Positions 9,272-42,167 of a DNA stretch of 64,000 nt are shown piece after piece. The translations under genes were made by a program, and so were the position numbers. Position 1 is the stretch's first letter, and the number at the start of each line of letters is the position of its first letter. The notes beneath the pieces are model-generated. The model worked only from the letters and a program-made list of their open reading frames with translations. It was not told the origin of the DNA and ran no database searches. Source of the DNA: a virus (Duplodnaviria > Heunggongvirae > Uroviricota > Caudoviricetes); the IMG/VR virus record IMGVR_UViG_3300029922_000040. One strand, given 5' to 3'.

Positions 9272-9511
9272 GTGAGACAGAAAATCGACAAAGCGTTGGA
9301 CAAGTTCGATGAGTTTTTGGCCGGTTTCGACCGGCTATGGAATCGACTCGACCCATTTGATGAAGAGTTACCCGAGTCTACCGTAGTCGATACAACCATT
9401 CGGGTCAGCCTGACTCGAAAGCAGTTAATGGGTTTGCTCCTCGGGGAGAAAAAGCGGTTACTGTTCAAAGTCAAGGACGGCGTAGCCATCCAAGTAGAAT
9501 TGAAGCCATGA
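9272..9511 (+). CDS. hypothetical protein (GTG start with aaggagg SD)
   Basis: ORF. Confidence 0.5.
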   Translation: MRQKIDKALDKFDEFLAGFDRLWNRLDPFDEELPESTVVDTTIRVSLTRKQLMGLLLGEKKRLLFKVKDGVAIQVELKP

Positions 9512-13769: not shown

Positions 13770-13803
13770 ATACTAGCCAAAAGTAGGGCACTCCGGGTAT
13801 ACT
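13760..13803 (+). promoter_or_regulatory. conserved phage promoter copy 4
   Basis: TAGCCA 13774-13779, 18 nt, TATACT 13798-13803. Confidence 0.5.
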
Positions 13804-13885
13804 AGGAGTATGTTGATTGTTTCCTTTGGGTGGGTAGTTTAACAATATACCCATCTCAAGAAAACAAACTACCAAACCCATCTAC

Positions 13886-14617
13886 ATGAAAACAAAATGT
13901 GGATGTGTGGATACAGGGCAGTTTTTGCAGCTTTTTAATTCAGGGGCTCTACTTAACGAGATTGGCACAGAGCTTAATGTGAGCCAACGAACCCTGAGTC
14001 GAATCGTAAAACAACTAGGTTTGAACGCGAAGACACGCCCCAAATTTAAGGTGGCGAAGCCGTCATTAACCCGACAGGTGGGCAAAAAATATGCTTACCT
14101 CACTGTTGTTGGAACGGAGTACAACAGCCGGTTACATCAATGGGTGCTGACCATAAAGTGCGACTGTGGTCGTATTTCTACGGAGACGGCACCCAAGCTA
14201 GTCAACGGCGACCGTAAATCTTGCGGAGTTATCGGATGCTCCTATCGTGGAGTCGTACGTCAAGAAAACGGGAAGAAAGCAGGGTGGACGGGATGCGGGG
14301 AGATTTACGGATGTAGGTGGGATCAGTGGCGAATAGGTGCAGAAAAGCGAGGATTGGCGTTCGACATCAGCATTGAATACGCTTGGGAGTTGTTTGAAAA
14401 ACAAGGTCGTAAATGCGCGTTGACGGGAGAGCCGATAAGTTTTGGAAATTCGTGGAACCGAAAATGCACAGCTTCACTTGACCGAATTGACTCCGCTAAA
14501 CCTTACATTGAGGGCAATGTTCAATGGGTGCAGACGCGGGTCAATTTGATGAAACGTAGTATGGATGAGGCGGAGTTCATAGAACTCTGTGGATTGATAT
14601 GGAAGAACCGCTCCTAA
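13886..14617 (+). CDS. HTH + Cys-ribbon + HNH-like homing-endonuclease-type protein
   Basis: HTH-like segment LNEIGTELNVSQRTLSRIV. Cys module KCDCGRISTETAPKLVNGDRKSCG. C-terminal ASLDRIDSAKPYIEGNVQWV...VNLMK, which is typical of HNH homing endonucleases. Confidence 0.55.
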   Translation: MKTKCGCVDTGQFLQLFNSGALLNEIGTELNVSQRTLSRIVKQLGLNAKTRPKFKVAKPSLTRQVGKKYAYLTVVGTEYNSRLHQWVLTIKCDCGRISTETAPKLVNGDRKSCGVIGCSYRGVVRQENGKKAGWTGCGEIYGCRWDQWRIGAEKRGLAFDISIEYAWELFEKQGRKCALTGEPISFGNSWNRKCTASLDRIDSAKPYIEGNVQWVQTRVNLMKRSMDEAEFIELCGLIWKNRS

Positions 14618-15639
14618 CTCGCGACGAATTCAGGGGACTGGTTCTTGCCAGAGACCACAATACTTGTGCCCATTGCGGCTCGTCTGGTGTTCGGCTCGAT
14701 GTTCACCACATTATGGAAAGACGCCTTTTTGAAGATGGAGGGTATAGAATTTCAAATGGAATCTCACTTTGTTCAGACTGCCACGAAGCGGCGGAAGCAA
14801 CCACTATTGATTGTGCAACGCTTCGTGAACGAGCAGGAATCGCAGTTCCTTGCCTCCCTCCACACTTTGAAGCAGATGGTGTGTACGATAAGTGGGGTAA
14901 CGGAATCTTGCCTAACGGTCAACGACTTCAGGGAGAATTGTTTCTGGAGCCCGGAGTGCAGAAGGCTCTGCGGAACAAACTCTACCTATTCACCGACAAG
15001 GTGAAGTACCCTAAAACTTTTCATTGGCCTTCGTCCCCCGGTCTACAAAATGACGACCGGATGCACACGACCACCGACCAATGGGACGGGTTGGAAGTCA
15101 TCGTTACCGAGAAGCTTGATGGAGAGAATACCACCATGGCACGGGATTATATGCACGCCCGGTCGTTGGAATTTAGCACTCATCCATCTCGCACTTTCAT
15201 AAAAGCAATCTGGTCTCGGGTTGCCCACGACATCCCTGAAAATTTCAGAGTCTGCGGCGAAAATGTCACAGCGGTTCATTCCATCGAGTACCATGACCTC
15301 GCCTCCTACTTCTATGTGTTCAACATCTGGCATGGGCAGAACTGCCTGTCATGGGATGACACCGAGACCTATGCCGGTCTACTGGACCTGCCCACCGTGC
15401 CGGTTCTATACCGGGGTGTGTGGGAGGAAGGGCTGATAGATAGCATCGCCAGCGGTCTTGTACCTGAGCGGCAAGAAGGACTAGTCTTCCGTCCCACACG
15501 AGGATTTACTCTGAGGGAGTTCCCCCGGCTTATGGCTAAGTGGGTGAGGAAGGGACATGTGCAAACCGATGAGCATTGGATGAGCCAGCCTGTAAGGTTC
15601 AACCACCGCCCACACAGAGGAGGAAGTAGATGGGGATGA
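14599..15639 (+). CDS. HNH nuclease domain fused to an Rnl2-like RNA ligase (nucleotidyltransferase)
   Basis: N-terminal HNH (CxxC..HH..N..CSDCH). Ligase motif I TEKLDGEN, motif IV EGLVFRP, motif V AKWVRKG. Confidence 0.6.
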   Translation: MEEPLLTRDEFRGLVLARDHNTCAHCGSSGVRLDVHHIMERRLFEDGGYRISNGISLCSDCHEAAEATTIDCATLRERAGIAVPCLPPHFEADGVYDKWGNGILPNGQRLQGELFLEPGVQKALRNKLYLFTDKVKYPKTFHWPSSPGLQNDDRMHTTTDQWDGLEVIVTEKLDGENTTMARDYMHARSLEFSTHPSRTFIKAIWSRVAHDIPENFRVCGENVTAVHSIEYHDLASYFYVFNIWHGQNCLSWDDTETYAGLLDLPTVPVLYRGVWEEGLIDSIASGLVPERQEGLVFRPTRGFTLREFPRLMAKWVRKGHVQTDEHWMSQPVRFNHRPHRGGSRWG

Positions 15640-28361: not shown

Positions 28362-28588
28362 TGCCTTACTGCAATAAGCAAGTAATGACCACCGGCTTGA
28401 ATTTCAATCGCCTTCGACAATGCAAGAACCACGCCATCGAGGGCTCCAAATTATGCCACGCACATCAACCCAAACCCAAACCTGAGTACAAGCCTGACCC
28501 CTACAAGACCGCCCTATTTGTGGCTGGCCTACAGGCTAAAGCTAGGACTCGCCGGGGAAGAGCACCAAAAAATCCTTGGGAAACCTAG
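28358..28588 (+). CDS. small basic Cys/His-containing protein
   Basis: ATG 28358 within ORF 28301..28588. Confidence 0.45.
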   Translation: MMPYCNKQVMTTGLNFNRLRQCKNHAIEGSKLCHAHQPKPKPEYKPDPYKTALFVAGLQAKARTRRGRAPKNPWET

Positions 28589-28615
28589 CCAAAACACCTA
28601 CACTCCCGGTATACT
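28572..28615 (+). promoter_or_regulatory. conserved phage promoter copy 10 (leaderless configuration)
   Basis: TAGCCA 28586-28591, 18 nt, TATACT 28610-28615; ATG at 28622. Confidence 0.5.
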
Positions 28616-28621
28616 AGAGAC

Positions 28622-29896
28622 ATGGACATGAGAGAAGCCGCTGAATTCGTGTTGAACACCCTCCGCAAGGCAGGATTTGAAGCCTACTTTGCTGGTGGTT
28701 GTGTTCGTGACTTTGTGATGGGACGGACTCCTAAGGATTTTGATATCACAACCAATGCCCGTCCAGAGCAGGTCACTCCCCTGTTTGATAAGACCATACC
28801 AGTCGGTGCTGCATTCGGCGTCGTGGTGGTGATGGTGGGAGGGTTTCAGTTTGAGGTCGCCACCTATCGTGCTGACGGTGCCTACAGCGATGGCCGTCGC
28901 CCCGATGAGGTTACCTACAGCAATTCCGCCGAGGAAGATGTAAAGCGGCGGGACTTCACCATGAACGGGCTCCTGATAGCCAATCCGTTTGATGCCCTCA
29001 TGACCGATTACAGTCTCGGCGTCCTCGACTACGTGGGCGGCAGGGATGACATCGAAAACCGGGTCATCCGGTGTATCGGCAATGCCGACACGCGCTTCAA
29101 AGAAGATGCATTGCGGATGTTGCGTGCGGTTCGCTTCGTTGGTCAGTTAGGCTTCGAGATAGAGGCGGAAACCTTCAAGGCCCTACAGGCGAACGTGGAC
29201 AGCATAGTCAACGTCTCCCGCGAACGTGTTGCGGAGGAGTTGAAGAAGCTGACCACATCCAAGTTCGCTGCCAGAGGGTTGGCGGCGTTGGCGTCTACTG
29301 GTTTGCTGCGTCGTCTGCTGCCTGACGGTGTTTCCGATACGCGCTTCGCCTTTACACTGGAGCGGTTCGCTATGTTCCAAACAACCGACCCCGTGATGGG
29401 TCTGGCGATGTTGCTGGCTGATACTCAGACCAACGAGATGGCAGCGTTGACCTGCGACAGCTTCAAGCTGTCTACGGATGAACGTGACGCCATCTTGGGT
29501 GCGGTTAGAAATCAGGAAGCCATAGGTTCAATTGGCTCTCCGGCTGGTACCAAGCTGTTGGCTCGTGAGAAGGGTGTACTGCCGTATGCAGTAGACCTGT
29601 TCGAGCAGAACATAGGTTTGGGCTTTGCAAACGGTGTAGAGGCAGGGATGGATGCAGTACTGCGGTACAGGGCATTAACGCCGGAAGACATACGCCCATC
29701 ACCGTTTGTCTCTGGCCGGGATTTGATAGAGATGGGATTCACGCCGGGGCCGATGTTCACCACGGTTTTAAGGGCGGTGGAGTTCGGTCAATTAAACGGC
29801 ACATTGACCACCCGCGAACAGGCACTCGGCTTCGCTAAGTTCGAATCCGGGGTGCAGGAAACAGCAGCCTTCGTCAAGAGCGAAGCGGAAAGGTAA
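28622..29896 (+). CDS. cca: tRNA nucleotidyltransferase (CCA-adding enzyme) / poly(A) polymerase family
   Basis: The head-domain signature GGCVRDFVMGRTPKDFDITTNARPEQV and RRDFTMNG are present. Confidence 0.8.
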   Translation: MDMREAAEFVLNTLRKAGFEAYFAGGCVRDFVMGRTPKDFDITTNARPEQVTPLFDKTIPVGAAFGVVVVMVGGFQFEVATYRADGAYSDGRRPDEVTYSNSAEEDVKRRDFTMNGLLIANPFDALMTDYSLGVLDYVGGRDDIENRVIRCIGNADTRFKEDALRMLRAVRFVGQLGFEIEAETFKALQANVDSIVNVSRERVAEELKKLTTSKFAARGLAALASTGLLRRLLPDGVSDTRFAFTLERFAMFQTTDPVMGLAMLLADTQTNEMAALTCDSFKLSTDERDAILGAVRNQEAIGSIGSPAGTKLLAREKGVLPYAVDLFEQNIGLGFANGVEAGMDAVLRYRALTPEDIRPSPFVSGRDLIEMGFTPGPMFTTVLRAVEFGQLNGTLTTREQALGFAKFESGVQETAAFVKSEAER

Positions 29897-32108: not shown

Positions 32109-32548
32109 GCGACAAGCTGGTGATTTTGTACCAAAAAATGGCCGACTTGACCGCCCCGGAGTGTGCCGGTGTGGGCGAAGGTTCCTGTCGTGTGCCTCAC
32201 TCCTGCTGCGATCAGATGTCCTGTGACATCACTAAAAGCATTGCGAAGGACGTATGGGGTGTCACTGACCTTCCAGAGTACCCTCCAACGAATCACCGAG
32301 GGGCCTACTACCTCGATGGCGACAAAGGCTGCACGGTCGCGCCACACCTTCGTCCGCATTGTGCTATGCACACATGCGCCGTGAACGGGCTTGGCTTCAA
32401 GCACGCTAATGGCGTCATCGACAAGAAGTGGACTCGTGACTACTTCAAGCTTCGGGGCAAGATTGAACGACTTGAGGCTGAGGTTCATCCGATTGGGCAA
32501 TTGCTCTTGCTCGAAAAGAGGCTTAACGTGTTTGAGGACGAAAAATAA
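32105..32548 (+). CDS. Cys/His-rich hypothetical protein (147 aa)
   Basis: ORF. Confidence 0.5.
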   Translation: MSDKLVILYQKMADLTAPECAGVGEGSCRVPHSCCDQMSCDITKSIAKDVWGVTDLPEYPPTNHRGAYYLDGDKGCTVAPHLRPHCAMHTCAVNGLGFKHANGVIDKKWTRDYFKLRGKIERLEAEVHPIGQLLLLEKRLNVFEDEK

Positions 32549-32591
32549 TTACTAAAATCTACAGCCAAACTCCAGCGAGTTCAGGTACTAT
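32548..32591 (+). promoter_or_regulatory. variant copy 14 of the conserved promoter, upstream of the helicase-MTase gene
   Basis: cagcca 32562-32567, 18 nt, TACTAT 32586-32591; ATG at 32598. Confidence 0.4.
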
Positions 32592-32597
32592 AACGTA

Positions 32598-35500
32598 ATG
32601 GCATCGACTATTGTACGAATTGATAACCAAGTTTTGGTTCGCGACAAGGGTGAGGGTGAAATACTCCCGGTGGGAGCCCAAATTGGAAATTGGTTTGTCA
32701 AGGGGGATATTGAGTACACCTACGAAATCCCCACACAAACCCGACTTTGTTTTTGTGGAAGGTGTAAGGGGCTTAACTGGCATCATCCTCCGGGTTCAAC
32801 TTTGATTGAATGCGGTAGCGGATTCAATCCGGCGTTAGCTCCTGACTTAATACAGGATGGCAAAGCCCGATATGAAATGGGGGCACGAACGGAGGAGGAT
32901 TGCCTTCGTTTGTGGGATGAGAAAAAAGTAATCGCTGGAGCACTGCGTAACCCGAGTATTGAACACCCCGAGTGGGGCAACCGCTTCAACAGGTACAACA
33001 AATGGGGGCAGTATCTTGGAATTCCCGACTACATCACAACCGATGAGTTGTTGAATCTCCTCCATTCAAACTACATCGAAGAGCGGCTGGCGTGGACTCG
33101 GGAAGCTACGCACGCAGCAACAGTTGAAATACGTTCAGCTTTTCAAAATCTTTTGCTGGCTGTCATTGGCGACTACGGTGGTTGCTTGGATGCATGTGCG
33201 AAGAAACTGAACTTGTCGGTCGAAACTCTCATCCAACGTTTGTGCGACTGCAAGAACGACGATGAGCGGCGGCAACTACTAGAAACCCCTAAGGAGCCTG
33301 AGACCCCTAAGGTTAGCCCCCCCGATACATGCCCGAAACCTGAAGACATCCCCACGTCTATCAAAAAACTTGACAAATTGATGCGGACGTACCCCAGTGG
33401 ATACTATGGCACGGCTGCAAATATACCTGAGATGTTAATACAACAGATGAACCAGTTACTGTGGATGCATTTAGAATTCCACGGTCTCGAACGCTTACAA
33501 CAGTGCCTTGCTGAGTGCATGACTGATACTCGTAAGCAATTTACAACCCTCTTTGAACAGGTGAAACGTTACCGAACCGAGAATCGCAACTGGATGCAAG
33601 CGTATTGCGTTTATTGGTTCGCTCACAGCGGACATCTTCTTGGGTTCAATCTAAGCGAGGCCGGAGCCGGAAAAACCAGCACCGTATATGCAATTGCGAA
33701 GGAGTTGGAACTAGAGAATGTTCTTATCCTCGGTACAAAATCTACGATTGATAACGATAACGATAACGACAGTCAATGGAAGCTGATGGCAAAGAGGGAG
33801 AACGAGCACAGGCAAAACATCTTCAACTGCCGTGACGTATTCGACCTCAAGAAGTTGGAATCAAAGCGGCGTAATTATGTGCTAGTAACTGAGTACACGG
33901 TGCAGAACAACCCCGACCTAATTGACCAGCTTTCCAAGATTCGCTGGGATATGATTGTCACTGATGAGCCCCAAGTATTCTCCGGCTCTAATGATGATAT
34001 AGACAGTACCAAACGGCTGAATCATTACTGTCGTCTTATTAGTGCAGCAATACAACTTAACCCTCGGTGCTTGAGGTACCTCATGTCAGCCACCCCCATT
34101 CGGTGTGAGGCCGAAGAGCTTATTCGAGTATTGGAGATAGTCTCAGGTGATGAACTTAAGAACGCAACTGGCGAGGGTGTATCCGGCCTTTTGAAGCTCC
34201 GCTTGTTTCTGTTCCGCAATGGATTTCGCTTCTACATCAATCCTAACCTTCTACCCATTGTGAAGCCGATAACTCTTGGTGTATACGAAGAGGTTGAACT
34301 CTTCGAAGACCCAGTTGTGAACTGCGTCATTATGGCTCAGTATCAATCGAACATCCTTTCCGAGGGTCGCACGATACTGGACATGGAGGTTGAAATGCTG
34401 CCGAGGCAGTGTGAGATTATCGAATCCAATCCAGTGCTTAAAAAAGCGTTTGTAGAAGCTTCATGCCCCATTCTTTATACACAGTTCACCGACACAAAAA
34501 GCAATCGAATTGTCTTTGTGCTGAAAGAATGGGCTGAGAAAATGAGACCGGGGTACCCAGTGTACATCTACACTGGGATGCACAAGCAAGACAAGCTGCT
34601 CAAAATCATTAAGAGGCATAAAGGTAAATGTACCCTCATTGCCAGTGCCCCCCTATCGGTTGGTCTGGACGGTCTTCAGAATCTTTCTGACACCATGTTT
34701 ATCATGGGCTCTCCGTGGCATTACGCTAACTTCGAGCAACTTCATCGCCGTATACGCCGCATTGGCTCACCCTTCTTGAATTCTGGTGTGGCGTGCATCG
34801 TAATGCTGGCGAAGGATGCTGAGTATCACGAAAATCGTTGGTCACGGCTGTGTCAGCGGCGGCGAAGCAGCTTGGTTGTTTTAGATGGAACCATTGTCCC
34901 TATTAACCCAAAACGTATCGAACAGGAGTACCTCAGGAACAAGGATAACATCTTGCGGTTATCTGGAGTGGAAGTGACCCCCGCTGCCACCGTTGTGGAT
35001 ATTACCACGCCACTCAAGCCTCGGAAGTACACCCCACCTAGAACAGTAATGATGGATGTTCATCGGCTGTATGCGAACTCTCACTCAGCCACACTGCCAC
35101 CCAAACGGCAAGGTGACCTGCTTATCGCTACCACGGGTAGAACATATAATCTAGCTGAGTATCATGCTGCCAATGAACTCACCAGCAAAGCGTACAAGCT
35201 TGTGTATGATACCTTTGTAGTGAAGAGCACCAACCTACGTATTCTAAGCTTGGGCTGCGGTACAACTGAACCTAAGTATGCACAGGAACTTGGCCTCCAG
35301 AATGTAACTTTTGTGGACATGCTCTTGACAGAGGAAGCGTATATTGAGTACCCTCAAATTTTACGACTCGACCGAAATGCAACAAAACTTCCTGATGGTT
35401 CGTTCGACCTTATTGTGTCTGTCCTTTCAATATTCCGGTTGGATTACGAACGCAGCATCCGAGAAATGGCACGGCTATTAGCTCCTAAAGGCCGTGCCAT

Positions 35501-35654
35501 CATTATTGAATCCTACCAATCTGAGAAAGCTGGTGGTAAACTTTGGGTACGGGAGAATTTAACCAAAGCATTCAAACTCAACGGTCTGAAATTCAAAGAA
35601 CCAAAACAGATGCCTAACCGGCATCTCCTGTTTGAAATACGAAAGGGGAGGTAG
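32598..35654 (+). CDS. SF2 (Snf2/DExH-like) helicase fused to a C-terminal SAM-dependent methyltransferase
   Basis: Helicase motifs: Walker A AGAGKTS, DEPQ box, and motif VI QLHRRIRRIG. Methyltransferase motifs: ILSLGCGTT and LLAPKGRAII. Confidence 0.75.
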   Translation: MASTIVRIDNQVLVRDKGEGEILPVGAQIGNWFVKGDIEYTYEIPTQTRLCFCGRCKGLNWHHPPGSTLIECGSGFNPALAPDLIQDGKARYEMGARTEEDCLRLWDEKKVIAGALRNPSIEHPEWGNRFNRYNKWGQYLGIPDYITTDELLNLLHSNYIEERLAWTREATHAATVEIRSAFQNLLLAVIGDYGGCLDACAKKLNLSVETLIQRLCDCKNDDERRQLLETPKEPETPKVSPPDTCPKPEDIPTSIKKLDKLMRTYPSGYYGTAANIPEMLIQQMNQLLWMHLEFHGLERLQQCLAECMTDTRKQFTTLFEQVKRYRTENRNWMQAYCVYWFAHSGHLLGFNLSEAGAGKTSTVYAIAKELELENVLILGTKSTIDNDNDNDSQWKLMAKRENEHRQNIFNCRDVFDLKKLESKRRNYVLVTEYTVQNNPDLIDQLSKIRWDMIVTDEPQVFSGSNDDIDSTKRLNHYCRLISAAIQLNPRCLRYLMSATPIRCEAEELIRVLEIVSGDELKNATGEGVSGLLKLRLFLFRNGFRFYINPNLLPIVKPITLGVYEEVELFEDPVVNCVIMAQYQSNILSEGRTILDMEVEMLPRQCEIIESNPVLKKAFVEASCPILYTQFTDTKSNRIVFVLKEWAEKMRPGYPVYIYTGMHKQDKLLKIIKRHKGKCTLIASAPLSVGLDGLQNLSDTMFIMGSPWHYANFEQLHRRIRRIGSPFLNSGVACIVMLAKDAEYHENRWSRLCQRRRSSLVVLDGTIVPINPKRIEQEYLRNKDNILRLSGVEVTPAATVVDITTPLKPRKYTPPRTVMMDVHRLYANSHSATLPPKRQGDLLIATTGRTYNLAEYHAANELTSKAYKLVYDTFVVKSTNLRILSLGCGTTEPKYAQELGLQNVTFVDMLLTEEAYIEYPQILRLDRNATKLPDGSFDLIVSVLSIFRLDYERSIREMARLLAPKGRAIIIESYQSEKAGGKLWVRENLTKAFKLNGLKFKEPKQMPNRHLLFEIRKGR

Positions 35655-35658
35655 TAAC

Positions 35659-35958
35659 ATGGCAAAGTTAAAACTGGAATTGCAGCGTGGTGGGGTACAG
35701 TCTCTTGTGACCCCGAAGGGAACCAAAGTATTGACTGGAGTGCCGCGAGTTGTGGCAACCAAATTTGGTACATACTTTGTGTTTGCGAAGACAAACGAAC
35801 ATGCGGAGAGCCTCATCAAGGTCGAGGGAACCGGACACCGCGTGTTCGAAGAGTATACGGTTGATGGCGTCACTGTGTATCGTCAGACCAAGGACACACC
35901 CAACGGCCAACTTAAGAAGGGTGAGTGGCATGTTGACGCGGATACTGTAACCTTGTAG
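35659..35958 (+). CDS. small beta-rich hypothetical protein (99 aa)
   Basis: ATG 35659 with a ggggagg SD, 5 nt after the helicase stop. Confidence 0.5.
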   Translation: MAKLKLELQRGGVQSLVTPKGTKVLTGVPRVVATKFGTYFVFAKTNEHAESLIKVEGTGHRVFEEYTVDGVTVYRQTKDTPNGQLKKGEWHVDADTVTL

Positions 35959-36023
35959 AATTGTCTGAAGCGCCGATGATGGCTCGAACAAGATTCTGCA
36001 CAAGATTCTAAAGAAGGGACTCT

Positions 36024-38594
36024 ATGAATTTCTCAGAAGTAAAAGCACACAGTATCGACGGGGTGTTCTACCTGACGATGAGCACCCACCCCGAACTTGC
36101 CAAGAAGGGCCGTCCTTTGGCACTCGTCAAATCTGGAAGTATGACGTTCTCCGACAATCAAGTAGCATTCAAGGGAGAGTCTTATCCCTTGGGGCTCACT
36201 CTCGCTGAGAACACCCCTTTAACCATCATTTTCACCAACCACAACAGCCGAGTGTTCAACATCGAACGCGGTGTGCAAACCAAGAAGCTTGAGAACGGTG
36301 ACCTTTTCTTCCAAGGCGAGAACCGCAACCATGGTAACAAGACCAAGGAAGAAATAGCAGCCAAAGGGACCGGCTACCTCACCCTCAAGAACCGGCTGTT
36401 CTACCATCATCGTGGTGTGGAGACCTCCGGTGCAGTTTTACCCAAGTGGGCCGCAGATAAGAAGACCAACTGGCGCTTGGTATGGAATATTCTCGCCTTG
36501 TTACTCCAATGGACTTTGCAGAAGAGCGAGGATGTTGGAGACACAACAACAAACTGGACACCACACATCAAAAGTGTTGCCATGCTTCTAACCGACGATA
36601 GGGAGGTGTCTGCATACCGTCGCACGACGTTGTCAGCCGAATCCACGGCCATCATCGAGCGCATCCGCAAAGTGATTGTGGACTCCATGAACGCTCACTA
36701 TGCTACTCGTGGACGCGAGGCTAAGTTACCTCTCCCGAAAAATCTTCGCGACAACGCCAAATACCCAGCCAACTTTTCTGACCTTCGCTACTTCATATAC
36801 CGCCTCGACAAGTATGAGAAGGAAGAAAAGGTTAAGGTTCTCGTTTGTGGGGTGGCTGAGAGCGACCCGGAGACCCTTCTCGCTAATTATCTGAAAACAG
36901 AACTGGGTAAATTGAAACGCCACAAAGAGCCCCTCAAAGCACTCAAGGCGCTTTTCACCAATATAGAGGAAACCAACTGGGCCGATGGCATGGGGGAGGT
37001 CTGGATGAATGGTGCAAAGCCATGGAGCGGTAACCTCTTCAATTACATCGGCAAGATGCTGGCTGTCCCCCCCGCAGAAATGGGTGAAATATCCACTCGC
37101 TTTCAAGCTGTGTTGAAACAGCGTGAATCGAAGAATAGTCCTTACGACAAAGGCTGGCCGAAACACATCCGCATTGATGAGGACACATGGCAGGTCTCCT
37201 ACGACGTACGTGGAAAGAAAACCCTCCGGGAAGTGCTGGATAACAAGGTTCCGCATATCCAGTTCACCGCCCCGCTGGATTCAATCAACACTGGAAAAGC
37301 ATTTCGTCACACCGTAACGGCTGTTGGCGACGACTTTGTGGTCACACCTGAGTTCAAGCCTATGACACCGGGCTCCTGCGCTGCCAAGCGGTCATTGCAC
37401 GGCGTTTCACTCACCGATGGCAAGGGCACCGACCCCTTCAAGTTGGCCGTCCTAGTTCACCGTGATGATGTTGACCTGAACGCTAAGGTGAAAAAGGTCA
37501 TTGTGTCCTTCAAGACAGAGAAGCGCAAAGTGGTTAAATACGCCGACCAAAATGGTCGAAACTCTGGTCTTGCGGCACCAGCGACCAAGCAGGTGCCCCA
37601 GTGCTACCTCAACTTCTGCCTTGCAGAAGTCAAGACTAACGAGAAGTACGATACGCGGGGCACCGGGTCGGCAAAGCTCACCCTCGGATGGAAGCTGGCG
37701 AAAGACGACCAGTTGAAAATCGTTACCGAGTCTCTTCCGACCGGGCAGACAAACGACTACTACTTGCCTCTCGGCGAAGAGTGGAAGACCGAAGGACTCT
37801 TCGCTGAAGGATGTGACAGCACGAAGAAGGGCAACGTTTGGTCGCGCAAGTCGGGGTATACACTGGCATTCCGCACGTTATACGGATGGCCGGGTGAGGA
37901 AGCCATTAAAAATGCCCAGAAGGCAGAACTTCAGGCACACTTCCGCACAAATACTTTGACGTACAATTGGCTTAAGACTACCCTCTTGTCACTACCGGAG
38001 CAGCTTGACCTTCTGCTCAACGCGGCCAAGGATGAGGGGTACAAGCTTATGACTGAGGAGCAGCGGAACATTGTTGACGCGGCAGGTTGGCGTATGGTTC
38101 GCCAGTCTGGCATGGTTCGTTACATCAACGAACTCCGCATTGGTGCCGGGACGCTAACTACAACCTACAACACTAACCCAAGTCGTCAGAGCGAGAAGTC
38201 CAAACCGCTCGGCTCTAACCCCGAACTCCTTCGTCTCTGGCTTCGCTGGCTTGAGTTCAACGACCGCCTTCGCACTGTAGAGCGTATGGTGCGTGAGAAC
38301 CTGTTGGGACGCCGTAAAGCTTACTACTATGTTCTCGCACACCGCATCTGCGACCATGCGTCAACCATCTCTTACAAGAAATTGAACCTCAAGGACGCTT
38401 CAGAGAAAGAGACCCGCGCCAAGAAGAAGGACAAGGGCGACAAAATGGCTTCCGATGCTTCGCAGAAGTACCGCTCGTGGGCATCACTGGCCGAATTTAC
38501 AACCATCCTCAAGCACGTCGCATTCAAGCGTGGCGTGACGGTCGAGGAGGTTGTTGAAGCCCTTGTTGACAAAGCTCTGGCCGCGTCAGCTTAA
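36024..38594 (+). CDS. large hypothetical protein (856 aa) immediately upstream of the CRISPR array; candidate array-associated effector. The function assignment itself is low confidence.
   Basis: Clean ORF ending in a strong terminator 100 nt before the array. No HNH, HEPN pair or Zn finger is present. Weak RuvC-like D..E..D candidates lie in the C-terminal 200 aa: NIVDAAGWRMVRQSG, MVRENL and SDASQKY. Confidence 0.8.
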   Translation: MNFSEVKAHSIDGVFYLTMSTHPELAKKGRPLALVKSGSMTFSDNQVAFKGESYPLGLTLAENTPLTIIFTNHNSRVFNIERGVQTKKLENGDLFFQGENRNHGNKTKEEIAAKGTGYLTLKNRLFYHHRGVETSGAVLPKWAADKKTNWRLVWNILALLLQWTLQKSEDVGDTTTNWTPHIKSVAMLLTDDREVSAYRRTTLSAESTAIIERIRKVIVDSMNAHYATRGREAKLPLPKNLRDNAKYPANFSDLRYFIYRLDKYEKEEKVKVLVCGVAESDPETLLANYLKTELGKLKRHKEPLKALKALFTNIEETNWADGMGEVWMNGAKPWSGNLFNYIGKMLAVPPAEMGEISTRFQAVLKQRESKNSPYDKGWPKHIRIDEDTWQVSYDVRGKKTLREVLDNKVPHIQFTAPLDSINTGKAFRHTVTAVGDDFVVTPEFKPMTPGSCAAKRSLHGVSLTDGKGTDPFKLAVLVHRDDVDLNAKVKKVIVSFKTEKRKVVKYADQNGRNSGLAAPATKQVPQCYLNFCLAEVKTNEKYDTRGTGSAKLTLGWKLAKDDQLKIVTESLPTGQTNDYYLPLGEEWKTEGLFAEGCDSTKKGNVWSRKSGYTLAFRTLYGWPGEEAIKNAQKAELQAHFRTNTLTYNWLKTTLLSLPEQLDLLLNAAKDEGYKLMTEEQRNIVDAAGWRMVRQSGMVRYINELRIGAGTLTTTYNTNPSRQSEKSKPLGSNPELLRLWLRWLEFNDRLRTVERMVRENLLGRRKAYYYVLAHRICDHASTISYKKLNLKDASEKETRAKKKDKGDKMASDASQKYRSWASLAEFTTILKHVAFKRGVTVEEVVEALVDKALAASA

Positions 38595-38604
38595 AAACGA
38601 GAAA

Positions 38605-38638
38605 CGCGAGAGGATAATCAATACTCTTCTCGCGTTTT
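38605..38638 (+). terminator. rho-independent terminator after the 856-aa gene
   Basis: About 10-bp stem at 38605-38614 / 38625-38634, then TTTT 38635-38638. Confidence 0.55.
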
Positions 38639-38643
38639 CCTGA

Positions 38644-38672
38644 GGTTCTAGTTAAGGCAATTGGTGTATAAT
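38644..38672 (+). promoter_or_regulatory. extended -10 promoter (TGtTATAAT) for the CRISPR array leader
   Basis: TG 38665-38666 and TATAAT 38667-38672, about 20 nt upstream of the first repeat. Confidence 0.4.
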
Positions 38673-38692
38673 CTATGGGTTGGGGCTATCCT

Positions 38693-39468
38693 CCTGTAGA
38701 CTTACTGGATTTGAAGGCTGAATCCAACATAGCCGCCGATGCGTATATAGGTTCCTAACCTGTAGACTTACTGGATTTGAAGGCTGAATCCAACGGGAGA
38801 GCCCGAGGATAAAATCAATGGAGACCTGTAGACTTACTGGATTTGAAGGCTGAATCCAACAGAGATGATTGTTAATGAAAAGACATCAACCCTGTAGACT
38901 TACTGGATTTGAAGGCTGAATCCAACGTAACTTGGGTTGTGCCATAGGTGGCAACACCTGTAGACTTACTGGATTTGAAGGCTGAATCCAACCCAGCATA
39001 CTGAGGGCCGTCATTGGTTCTCCCTGTAGACTTACTGGATTTGAAGGCTGAATCCAACTAGATCAGGTATTCGGAGTCTGAGTAAAGCCCTGTAGACTTA
39101 CTGGATTTGAAGGCTGAATCCAACAGTCAGCTTTGGCACACCTGTAGATTTACTGGATTTGGAGGCTGAATCCAACGGAGGGATGTACCGTTGAACGTCG
39201 AAACCTGTATACTGGATTTGGAGGCTGAATCCAACATATTGCTGCACCGCTTACTGGATTTGAAGGCTGAATCCAACGAAGCTTGCCTTGGTACTGTCCC
39301 TGTAGACTTTACTGGATTTGAAGGCTAAATCCACCTACGGAACGCAGCCGTGATGTCTTTGGGTTGCCCGTATACCCACTGGATTTGAAGGCTGAATCCA
39401 ACCCTGATGGCACTCACGTGTGGATGGCGGAACCTGTAGACTTACTGGATTTGAAGGCTGAATCCAAC
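38693..39468 (+). CRISPR. CRISPR array: 13 repeats (6 intact, 1 intact with a truncated spacer, 5 degenerate or 5'-truncated, then a final intact repeat) with 12 spacers of mostly 30-31 nt
   Basis: Repeat CCTGTAGACTTACTGGATTTGAAGGCTGAATCCAAC has copies starting near 38693, 38759, 38825, 38891, 38957, 39023, 39089, 39141, 39205, 39249, 39299, 39377 and 39433. A 6-bp hairpin (TGGATT / AATCCA) sits near the repeat 3' end. Confidence 0.9.
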
Positions 39469-39540: not shown

Positions 39541-39583
39541 AATCCCAAAAAACTATCCAAAACCTCGGAGTCTCCGATATACT
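39541..39583 (+). promoter_or_regulatory. conserved phage promoter copy 11, directly after the array
   Basis: TATCCA 39555-39560, 17 nt, TATACT 39578-39583; in-frame ATG at 39590. Confidence 0.5.
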
Positions 39584-39589
39584 ACATGT

Positions 39590-40137: not shown

Positions 40138-40713
40138 ATGCCGCGTCTTTGTTGGTGGACTGAGGCCAACCCTCTCGCACTCGAAAGCGACACAGCGTTC
40201 TCCCGGCCACGCCTCAACACCAACTACATCCAGACTTCGTTGGATAGCCTGATTCACATGGTGTACCACCGGGGTCTCATCGACAGCCCCGACTATCAGC
40301 GGGGCTATGTCTGGACTCTGGAAGACAAGCAGAAACTTATTCGGAGCATTTTCAACCGGGCTGACATTGGCAAGTTCGTTTTCCTTGAGGATGAGAACTA
40401 CCGTGAGTATCGGCTGGAAGTCATCGACGGCAAGCAACGGCTTCGGGCTATCACGGAATTTTACGAGGGTCGCTTCGAGTTTGAAGGTAAGACGTGGTAT
40501 CAGCTTTCACGGCGGGACAAATATGCGTTCTGCGACATCATGATTCAAGCGGCTACGCTACAACGTGGTAAAGTCAAGCGGTCGGATGTTCTCTGGCTGT
40601 TTCTCCAGTTGAACGCTGGCGGCGTCCCTCAGACCGAGGAGCACATCGCCTACGCTCGTAAGCTGTACGAGGCTGAAATTGCGAACGAGAAGGACATGGA
40701 AATAATTTCCTGA
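40138..40713 (+). CDS. DUF262 / ParB-like nuclease-domain (GmrSD N-terminal-type) protein
   Basis: DYQRGYVW and VIDGKQRL motifs. Confidence 0.6.
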   Translation: MPRLCWWTEANPLALESDTAFSRPRLNTNYIQTSLDSLIHMVYHRGLIDSPDYQRGYVWTLEDKQKLIRSIFNRADIGKFVFLEDENYREYRLEVIDGKQRLRAITEFYEGRFEFEGKTWYQLSRRDKYAFCDIMIQAATLQRGKVKRSDVLWLFLQLNAGGVPQTEEHIAYARKLYEAEIANEKDMEIIS

Positions 40714-42117: not shown

Positions 42118-42161
42118 TATTCCGAAAAAAGTAGCCAAAAAACCTACGAGTTCGGTATACT
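42118..42161 (+). promoter_or_regulatory. conserved phage promoter copy 13 (leaderless configuration)
   Basis: TAGCCA 42132-42137, 18 nt, TATACT 42156-42161; ATG at 42168. Confidence 0.5.
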
Positions 42162-42167
42162 AAGGTC

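Follow-up and report, generated by a model that had tools for sequence, protein, structure and literature searches.

Cas12m, the effector of type V-M (formerly V-U1) CRISPR systems, binds DNA without cleavage even when its catalytic triad is intact, and its processing of the precursor of CRISPR RNA (pre-crRNA) is independent of the RuvC domain (PMC11013384). Cas12m-Cas3 hybrids, CasMu-V with its loss of RuvC-III, and a phage-borne dead Cas9 (dCas9) accompanied by an SNF2 helicase were reported by Altae-Tran et al. in 2023 (PMC10910872). The type IV-A systems with the helicase DinG are the nearest functional analogue of the module described here (PMC11656645). The existing nuclease-free modes of CRISPR action are roadblocking, as in Cas12m and type IV, and the recruitment of a transposase, as in CRISPR-associated transposons (CAST). 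We analyzed 64,000 nucleotides of a virus of the Caudoviricetes (IMG/VR record IMGVR_UViG_3300029922_000040; this whole stretch is referred to as the window), in which a gene for a helicase fused to an S-adenosylmethionine (SAM) methyltransferase (helicase-MTase; 1018 amino acids, aa), a gene for a small protein of 99 aa, and a gene for an 856-aa Cas12m-like effector with an inactivated, truncated RuvC domain are followed by a CRISPR array. Full-text searches of the literature gave no description of Cas12 or Cas12m with a helicase and a methyltransferase in this arrangement. We class the module as a variant form of type V CRISPR-Cas.

The relatives of the 856-aa protein with readable context carry arrays of 36-nt repeats of the same design, which marks it as a genuine type V effector from a Cas12m-like clade. 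Like other type V effectors, it is one large protein whose C-terminal RuvC (RNase H) fold is homologous to that of TnpB. The protein gave no Pfam match and, on its own, no match to any PDB chain; its last 100 residues weakly matched the Cas12u1/Cas12f profiles of PADLOC. The only clear homologue among 5.8 billion proteins was P0001 (locus L001), with 53% identity. A profile built from these two proteins gave 27 matches among 1.84 billion representative proteins, including proteins of 690–860 aa that scored as Cas12 and aligned with the 856-aa protein over its full length, and relatives above approximately 25% identity numbered two among the same representatives. The family profile matched Cas12m in the PDB with an E value of 1e-40, and Cas12m2 was the top fold match. 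The structure of the effector was predicted by AlphaFold from an alignment of 13 sequences with a pLDDT (predicted local distance difference test) of 72.5. Neither the region nor the effector gave a BLAST match among 50,697 phage records, and a scan of IMG/VR with the effector alignment likewise found nothing. The effector resembles Cas12m in its profile and fold matches, in the combination of a single effector with an array, in the structured 3′ part of the repeat beside the spacer, and in its expected mode of action, DNA binding without cleavage. Cas12m is approximately 600 aa long and carries a TNB zinc ribbon, whereas the window effector is 856 aa long with both TNB and RuvC-III deleted, is phage-borne, and is always accompanied by the helicase-MTase and the 99-aa protein. 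The 3′ hairpin of the repeat and the lost catalytic residues would be in keeping with the V-M mode, in which crRNA alone guides a PAM-dependent binding of dsDNA that leaves it uncut. The clade may be a sister of V-M rather than V-M proper.

In regards to the catalytic residues, the D-E-D triad and the TNB/zinc-ribbon insert of type V effectors are not intact in the window effector. The usual motifs of the family are the D in G(L/F)DIGWR (RuvC-I), the E in LN(V/I)E (RuvC-II), the D in DQDxNAA (RuvC-III), and a CxxC...CxxC zinc ribbon. In the window effector, threonine and lysine replace the first two residues, in contrast to the D-E-D, H-D-D, or N-D-D sets of Cas12m, RuvC-III and the TNB zinc ribbon are absent, and the protein ends approximately 13 residues past the last RuvC β-strand. 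P0001 has K at both RuvC-I and RuvC-II and is truncated in the same way, lacking RuvC-III and the zinc ribbon. The effector P0084 of L010 has lost the D of RuvC-I, perhaps kept the E of RuvC-II (the alignment is ambiguous there), and has Y in RuvC-III (IDRYENRA). The L021 effector has D in RuvC-I, K in RuvC-II, and T in RuvC-III (KKTENAA), with the zinc ribbon kept. Among the seven context-free relatives whose catalytic columns were read from the alignment, six have D-E-D. Judged from its residues, the window effector is an inactivated form of Cas12, a condition that it shares with Cas12k, CasMu-V, and some of the Cas12m proteins. Such a loss of RuvC is compatible with a working guide-dependent DNA binder, because Cas12m leaves its bound DNA uncut and processes pre-crRNA independently of RuvC. 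The dead, truncated RuvC domain, which did not figure in a preliminary description of the locus, makes an accessory enzyme plausible.

The candidate for such an enzyme is the 1018-aa protein. The preliminary description had called it a Snf2-like helicase fused to a SAM methyltransferase. Family matches in Pfam, PHROG, and PADLOC confirmed both domains: ResIII, Helicase_C, and phrog_62 identify a helicase core of superfamily 2 (SF2), and Methyltransf_11/8 identifies a class I SAM methyltransferase at the C terminus. The Snf2 label was only weakly supported (SNF2-rel_dom, E = 0.045). The helicase motifs are Walker A GAGKT (residues 356–360), DEPQ (456–459), SAT (497–499), GLDGLQ (689–694), and QLHRRIRRIG (714–723), and those of the methyltransferase are LSLGCG (883–888), FVD (905–907), and DLIVSV (937–942). 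All catalytic motifs of both domains are intact and are invariant across the L001 and L010 orthologues; the L021 orthologue, with 34% identity to the window protein over 791 aa, has kept them as well. The helicase core is preceded by an N-terminal region of approximately 340 aa with CxCGxCxG at residues 51–58. The matches of the protein in Pfam, NCBIfam, and PADLOC were limited to ResIII, Helicase_C, a weak BrxH, and a Mad2-type methyltransferase, and no match to Cas3, an HD nuclease, or DinG was found in these collections. The likeness to Cas3 and DinG that had been suggested for it thus holds as a functional resemblance and not as family membership. The nearest solved relatives of the methyltransferase domain are generic small-molecule or lipid methyltransferases.

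Approximately 80 distant homologues share the order of helicase followed by methyltransferase, with 22–26% identity over approximately 61% of the protein. These generic ResIII-Helicase_C-Methyltransf_8 fusions come from cyanobacteria, Methylopumilus, and viral-like contigs, including giant-virus-like ones. The architecture is alike, but the fusions lack the region of approximately 340 aa upstream of the helicase core and, where their neighbourhoods were inspected, a Cas12 neighbour. This region matched no recovered generic homologue and is shared among the Cas12-linked orthologues, which form a subgroup of the generic fusion family that is marked by it. The Cas12-linked orthologues turned up only beside dead Cas12 in homologue searches that were non-exhaustive. 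Scans of IMG/VR and of the GTDB genomes with the helicase alignment found nothing.

Several described proteins and systems combine comparable parts. DarB of phage P1 is a protein of approximately 2255 aa that is packaged in the virion and has an N-terminal N6-adenine DNA methyltransferase. The 1018-aa protein resembles it as a large phage protein that combines a methyltransferase with an SF2 helicase, whereas here the methyltransferase is C-terminal (the reversed order), belongs to the Methyltransf_11/8 class, and has no DPPY motif. Against phrog_62, the long phage helicase profile, the Helicase_C part alone was matched. The Cas12m-Cas3 hybrids likewise pair a non-cleaving Cas12 with an SF2 helicase, but the partner in the window is not a Cas3 or HD nuclease and carries a SAM methyltransferase instead, in addition to the conserved small protein. 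Type IV-A with DinG is alike in being nuclease-free, dependent on an accessory helicase, and borne on mobile elements, in usually lacking adaptation, and in its presumed role in competition between elements. It differs in its class 1 multi-subunit effector and in DinG, which belongs to another SF2 family and has no methyltransferase.

The 99-aa protein is the best conserved of the three, with identities of 72% (L001), 40% (L010), and 47% (L021), and its gene directly follows the helicase-MTase gene in each of the four lineages that carry the module. Its sole family match was a weak one to DUF7352 (E = 0.005), and no PDB match was found. The protein has no cysteines. We considered that it might supply the missing TNB and RuvC-III in trans and rejected this possibility, since the protein is cysteine-free and its "DAD" is not conserved. 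Small open reading frames (ORFs) upstream of the active relatives P0088 and P0105 were also considered as homologues and were not alike by eye.

The dead effector, the helicase-MTase, the small protein, and an array occur together in four phage-like lineages with GC contents of 41–61%, once in a permuted order. In L001–L006, the gene order is as in the window and the array is very large. The gene order is again the same in L010, where a mini-array precedes the helicase gene and another array starts after the terminator of the effector gene. The mini-array consists of three degenerate repeats and a repeat remnant, oriented as the genes are; the three-gene block of L010 is therefore bracketed by arrays. 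L021 is an IMG/VR contig of 157.6 kb that was found via the 99-aa protein, and its order is effector, helicase-MTase, small protein, and an array of 25 repeats; its GC content is 61%, versus 51%, 48%, and 41% for the other three lineages. The flanks of L001 are rearranged with respect to the window: the GmrSD/NsnA-like gene and two small genes, which in the window follow the array, are located upstream of the helicase gene in L001. The block from the start of the helicase gene to the end of the array is intact despite this rearrangement. Between the window and L010, the identities are 61% for a poly(ADP-ribose) polymerase (PARP) protein and 59% for a PolyA polymerase in the flanks, versus 31% for the helicase-MTase, 40% for the 99-aa protein, and 27% for the effector. 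This step in divergence indicates that the three genes diverge, or are exchanged, together. The D-E-D relatives with readable context (P0083 in L011 and P0091 in L015) have arrays and no adjacent helicase-MTase or small-protein gene. In L015, an uncharacterised ORF of 844–876 aa lies between the D-E-D effector gene and the array and could be a different accessory gene of that branch.

The joint occurrence of the three genes that the preliminary description had proposed to look for was thus found with the array in four lineages, once reordered. It had also considered that the helicase-MTase might belong to a DarB-like anti-restriction family found without arrays. Generic fusions do occur in phage-like contigs, whereas the protein is unlike DarB in domain order and methyltransferase class, and the non-exhaustive searches gave no close orthologue unlinked to the effector. 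The quartet is very probably one conserved functional module and not a chance adjacency, since it is conserved through rearrangement, permutation, and a wide range of GC contents, and only alongside inactivated effectors.

The features of the locus are summarized in Table 1. A variant of a promoter motif that recurs in the window precedes the three genes, as had been described previously. The motif, strongly conserved and with an A/T-rich stretch at its front, reads ACTAGCCAAAAC-N12-TCGGTATACTA-N5-ATG and was found at 13 or more other sites of the window, all on the + strand, with the ATG 5–6 nt downstream. This fixed geometry would imply leaderless or near-leaderless mRNAs, and the shared motif perhaps reflects a sigma factor or RNA polymerase specific to the phage. 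Neither the 99-aa gene nor the 856-aa gene has a copy before it, and the next copy lies beyond the array. L021 also has a GGTATACTA element, which is found on the opposite strand a short way upstream of its effector gene. The spacing of the three genes is tight, with gaps of 4 and 65 nt rather than the 5 and 66 nt given before. Compensatory changes preserve the terminator-like hairpin directly after the effector gene in L001, and an equivalent one is present in L010. A single upstream promoter, tight spacing, and a conserved terminator hairpin after the 856-aa gene bear out the operon that had been proposed. The best reading of the locus is therefore that the three genes form one operon and that the array is promoted separately. 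The array appears to have its own -10 element and is thus probably a separate transcript; L001 likewise has TATAAT between the hairpin and the first repeat. The short direct repeat before the effector gene, to which attention had been drawn, exists, but it is probably of no particular significance: approximately 10 comparable repeats occur elsewhere in the window. We rejected this repeat (CAAGATTCT) as a regulatory site, since it is not conserved in L001 and L010 and is not unusual for the window. Rfam and tRNA scans of the window were both empty.

Table 1. Positions of the module, of its parts in related loci, and of neighbouring genes.
Feature	Sequence	Position	Strand	Description
Variant phage promoter	Window	32541-32592	+	A/T-rich stretch, -35-like CTACAGCCAAAC (32559-32570), -10-like GGTACTATA (32584-32592); ATG at 32598
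Helicase-MTase gene	Window	32598-35654	+	1018 aa
Small-protein gene	Window	35659-35958	+	99 aa
Short direct repeat	Window	35988-36009	+	Two copies of ACAAGATTCT with a period of 12, within the 65-nt gap between small-protein and effector genes
Effector gene	Window	36024-38594	+	856 aa, Cas12m-like with inactivated, truncated RuvC
RuvC-I position of effector	Window	37680-37682		D replaced by T553 (KLTLGWK)
RuvC-II position of effector	Window	38391-38393		E replaced by K790 (KLNLK)
Terminator-like hairpin	Window	38602-38639	+	G+C-rich, AAACGCGAG...CTCGCGTTT then T run, directly after effector stop codon
Array leader	Window	38640-38692	+	TATAAT -10 element at 38667-38672, consensus match
CRISPR array	Window	38693-39468	+	13 copies of 36-nt repeat CCTGTAGACTTACTGGATTTGAAGGCTGAATCCAAC, 98 nt past effector stop codon
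Promoter-like motif, example copies	Window	3838-3866, 13776-13804, 22324-22352, 23438-23466, 28588-28616, 39556-39584, 42134-42162	+	
Shortened array units	Window	39125-39335		
Shortened array units	L001	12635-14950		
Shortened array units	L021	9336-10067		
Mini-array	L010	3631-3790		Three degenerate repeats
Repeat remnant	L010	~4063-4090		
Promoter-like element	L021	~2200-2215	Opposite to effector gene	GGTATACTA
Near-duplicate spacers	L021	9138-9167 and 9634-9663		
Uncharacterised ORF	L015	10489-13023		844–876 aa, P0091 locus
Major vault protein homologue	Window	2-2557		851-aa ORF running in from the edge; shoulder and repeat domains (Pfam E = 4e-23, 4e-10)
RNA/NAD-related cluster	Window	14599-15639, 23472-24977, 28622-29896		HNH-RNA ligase fusion, PARP catalytic-domain protein, PolyA/CCA-adding polymerase
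TnpB gene	Window	20973-22181		402 aa, OrfB_IS605 and Cas12f1-like TNB domain
GmrSD_N / NsnA-like gene	Window	40138-40713		DUF262-type (PADLOC NsnA, E = 1e-18)
GmrSD_N / NsnA-like homologue	L001	2995-3834	-	Upstream of the module, inverted
1325-aa ORF	Window	55300-59277		Internal Xre/MbcA/ParS-type antitoxin domain
911-aa ORF	Window	59280-62015		N-terminal DUF7249 domain

The repeat ends in a 3′ hairpin (UGGAUU...AAUCCA) followed by AC, and the same 36-nt design is found with the effector relatives in L001, L011, L015, and L021. The arrays hold from 13 to at least 35 repeats across lineages, and their spacer content differs between lineages. In the window, the leader-proximal spacers are 30 nt long, and units 7–11 are degenerate or truncated with the 3′ hairpin retained. 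Many shortened units with a spacing of 42–59 nt, versus the usual 66 nt, were observed in the window, L001, and L021; the shortest have lost the 3′ portion of the spacer together with the 5′ portion of the repeat that follows. Because the 3′ hairpin of the repeat is always retained, these units suggest that a handle of approximately 24 nt with a short guide (13–16 nt or more) may be sufficient. No cas1, cas2, or cas4 gene was found among the 10 ORFs neighbouring the window module, and, with no cas1 or cas2 nearby, the shortened units also suggest that the arrays evolve through deletion and duplication and not through acquisition. In L021, two near-duplicate spacers differ at 2 of 30 positions, and the pair at 9336 and 9401 shares a core; both pairs reflect either the duplication of array segments or guides directed at variant targets. 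No candidate for a trans-activating crRNA was seen, and no dedicated examination for one was made. Solitary repeat-like elements that might act as autoregulatory guides were looked for elsewhere in the window, and none was found. A scan of IMG/VR with the repeat pattern found nothing, and a metagenome scan with this pattern gave only samples already known.

The gene structure, the homologies, the loss of catalytic residues, the intact enzyme motifs, and the conserved co-occurrence that includes a permuted order were observed; the binding of DNA without cutting, the physical recruitment, the methylation substrate, and the biological targets proposed below are inferred. The three proteins would be made from the one phage promoter, with transcription ending at the terminator-like hairpin, and the array would yield, from its own promoter, crRNAs in which the handle formed by the 3′ end of the repeat (hairpin and AC) precedes the guide. 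The Cas12m-like effector would keep the RNA- and DNA-binding architecture of Cas12 and bind its target with no cutting. The effector-crRNA complex would locate its DNA target, on a rival mobile element or on host DNA, and form an R-loop, and the bound effector would block transcription or replication in the manner of Cas12m. Moreover, it would be a landing platform for the enzymatic arm, the helicase-MTase with the small protein, which would start at the R-loop, translocate or unwind, and methylate a substrate made accessible there. Such recruitment would be analogous to that of Cas3 in type I, of DinG in type IV-A, and to the reported Cas12m-Cas3 hybrids. We lean slightly towards the view that the helicase-MTase works with the effector at its targets. 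That the module is a natural system of RNA-guided modification, in which the dead Cas12 delivers a helicase-coupled SAM methyltransferase to a chosen locus, is a tentative proposal that we regard as unlikely. Methylation would then fall on strands unwound in the R-loop or past it, on nascent RNA, or on a bound protein, and the phage could in this way silence a host gene or rival element, mark it, or poison it while leaving it uncut.

If the helicase-MTase is the working arm, the module would represent a third nuclease-free mode of CRISPR action, guided enzymatic modification. Guided methylation, if true, would be a natural counterpart of the engineered fusions of dead Cas proteins with methyltransferases. 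It would also follow that Cas12 tolerates the loss of the whole zinc ribbon and RuvC-III segment and is still selected with large arrays. In practical terms, the effector could serve as a Cas12 scaffold that is dead by nature, is guided by crRNA only, and comes with its native partner enzyme. On a conservative reading, a rare phage-specific branch of Cas12m-like effectors has been documented.

Several observations weigh against joint action of the effector and the helicase-MTase. Cas12m acts as a roadblock by itself and in principle requires no partner (PMC11013384). Fusions of the generic helicase-Methyltransf_8 kind are widespread, and the 1018-aa protein falls within the definition of that family; the two closest generic homologues lie on phage-like contigs, which were not scanned for arrays, with no Cas12-sized gene as a neighbour. 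The homologue searches for the helicase-MTase were non-exhaustive, and the one that yielded the approximately 80 proteins missed the L001 and L010 orthologues. The triad of P0086 is degraded (N-P-D), with no helicase-MTase nearby on its 5.6-kb contig. Furthermore, because neither DPPY/NPPY-type nor C5-type DNA methyltransferase motifs are found in its sequence, DNA may not be the substrate of this Methyltransf_11/8-class enzyme. No protospacer was found in the window, the related loci, the phage collection, or IMG/VR, the last searched with three guide patterns; the single match (16/18) was at chance level. The module is known from four lineages only, all phage-like, which share some other genes, namely the PARP and PolyA polymerase genes with L010 and a DUF7249-type gene with L021, so that the co-occurrence may stem from synteny inherited within one phage group. 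On that account, the helicase-MTase and the 99-aa protein would be ordinary phage proteins, with roles such as RNA or DNA modification, host takeover, or anti-restriction, encoded beside a self-sufficient Cas12m-like silencer, and the RNA-metabolism genes nearby in the window (PolyA/CCA polymerase, RNA ligase, and PARP) would suit them. We consider this rather improbable, given that the quartet persists through the flank rearrangement of L001, the permutation of L021, and GC contents from 41 to 61%, that the trio of L010 diverges as a unit approximately twice as far as its flanks and has arrays on both of its sides, that only the Cas12-linked orthologues were seen to carry the sequence upstream of the helicase core, and that the D-E-D relatives are without the helicase-MTase and small-protein genes.

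The arrays bear on a second alternative, in which the dead effector sequesters the crRNAs of the host or of rivals, or represses phage or host genes with a timing of its own, and the helicase-MTase is an unrelated counter-defence protein of the same early operon. A phage Cas9 whose RuvC domain is inactive and which has an SNF2 helicase as its neighbour has been proposed as an anti-CRISPR mimic (PMC10910872), the nuclease-less CRISPR systems of huge phages have been suggested to repress transcription (PMC7162821), and adaptation genes are lacking near the module. Unlike the dCas9 case, however, large arrays of matching repeats (13 to at least 35) are always present, and spacer content specific to each lineage argues for real guide use; a decoy or regulator of this kind is quite unlikely. 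The inactivation itself, including the loss of RuvC-III, is typical of CRISPR-associated transposons (PMC10910872, PMC11656645), and the position of the module relative to shared genes differs among the window, L001, and L021, as would suit an RNA-guided mobility or homing system in which the dead Cas12 directs insertion or recombination with the helicase as its motor. Cas12k of the V-K CAST and CasMu-V (through its loss of RuvC-III) are indeed naturally inactivated Cas12 proteins that recruit other enzymes, but transposition genes are absent from the module here. No transposase, TniQ/TnsC, or Mu gene was found in or beside it in any lineage, although transposon end repeats were not searched for, and the only TnpB gene of the window is 11 kb away. 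Mobility of this kind is therefore very improbable.

The window has the look of a segment from a huge phage genome. Nearly all of its long ORFs are on the + strand, and they include a ClpB-like AAA protein in addition to the major vault protein homologue, TnpB, PARP, PolyA/CCA polymerase, and HNH-RNA ligase listed in Table 1. Major vault protein domains are an unusual find in a phage-like genome. The PARP and polymerase genes lie in synteny with those of L010, with identities of approximately 60%, and the separate TnpB gene lies upstream of the module. The GmrSD_N / NsnA-like gene just past the array is defence-associated. Toward the end of the window, the C-terminal part of the 911-aa ORF product shows 52–65% identity to an L021 ORF located 1.3 kb upstream of the effector gene.

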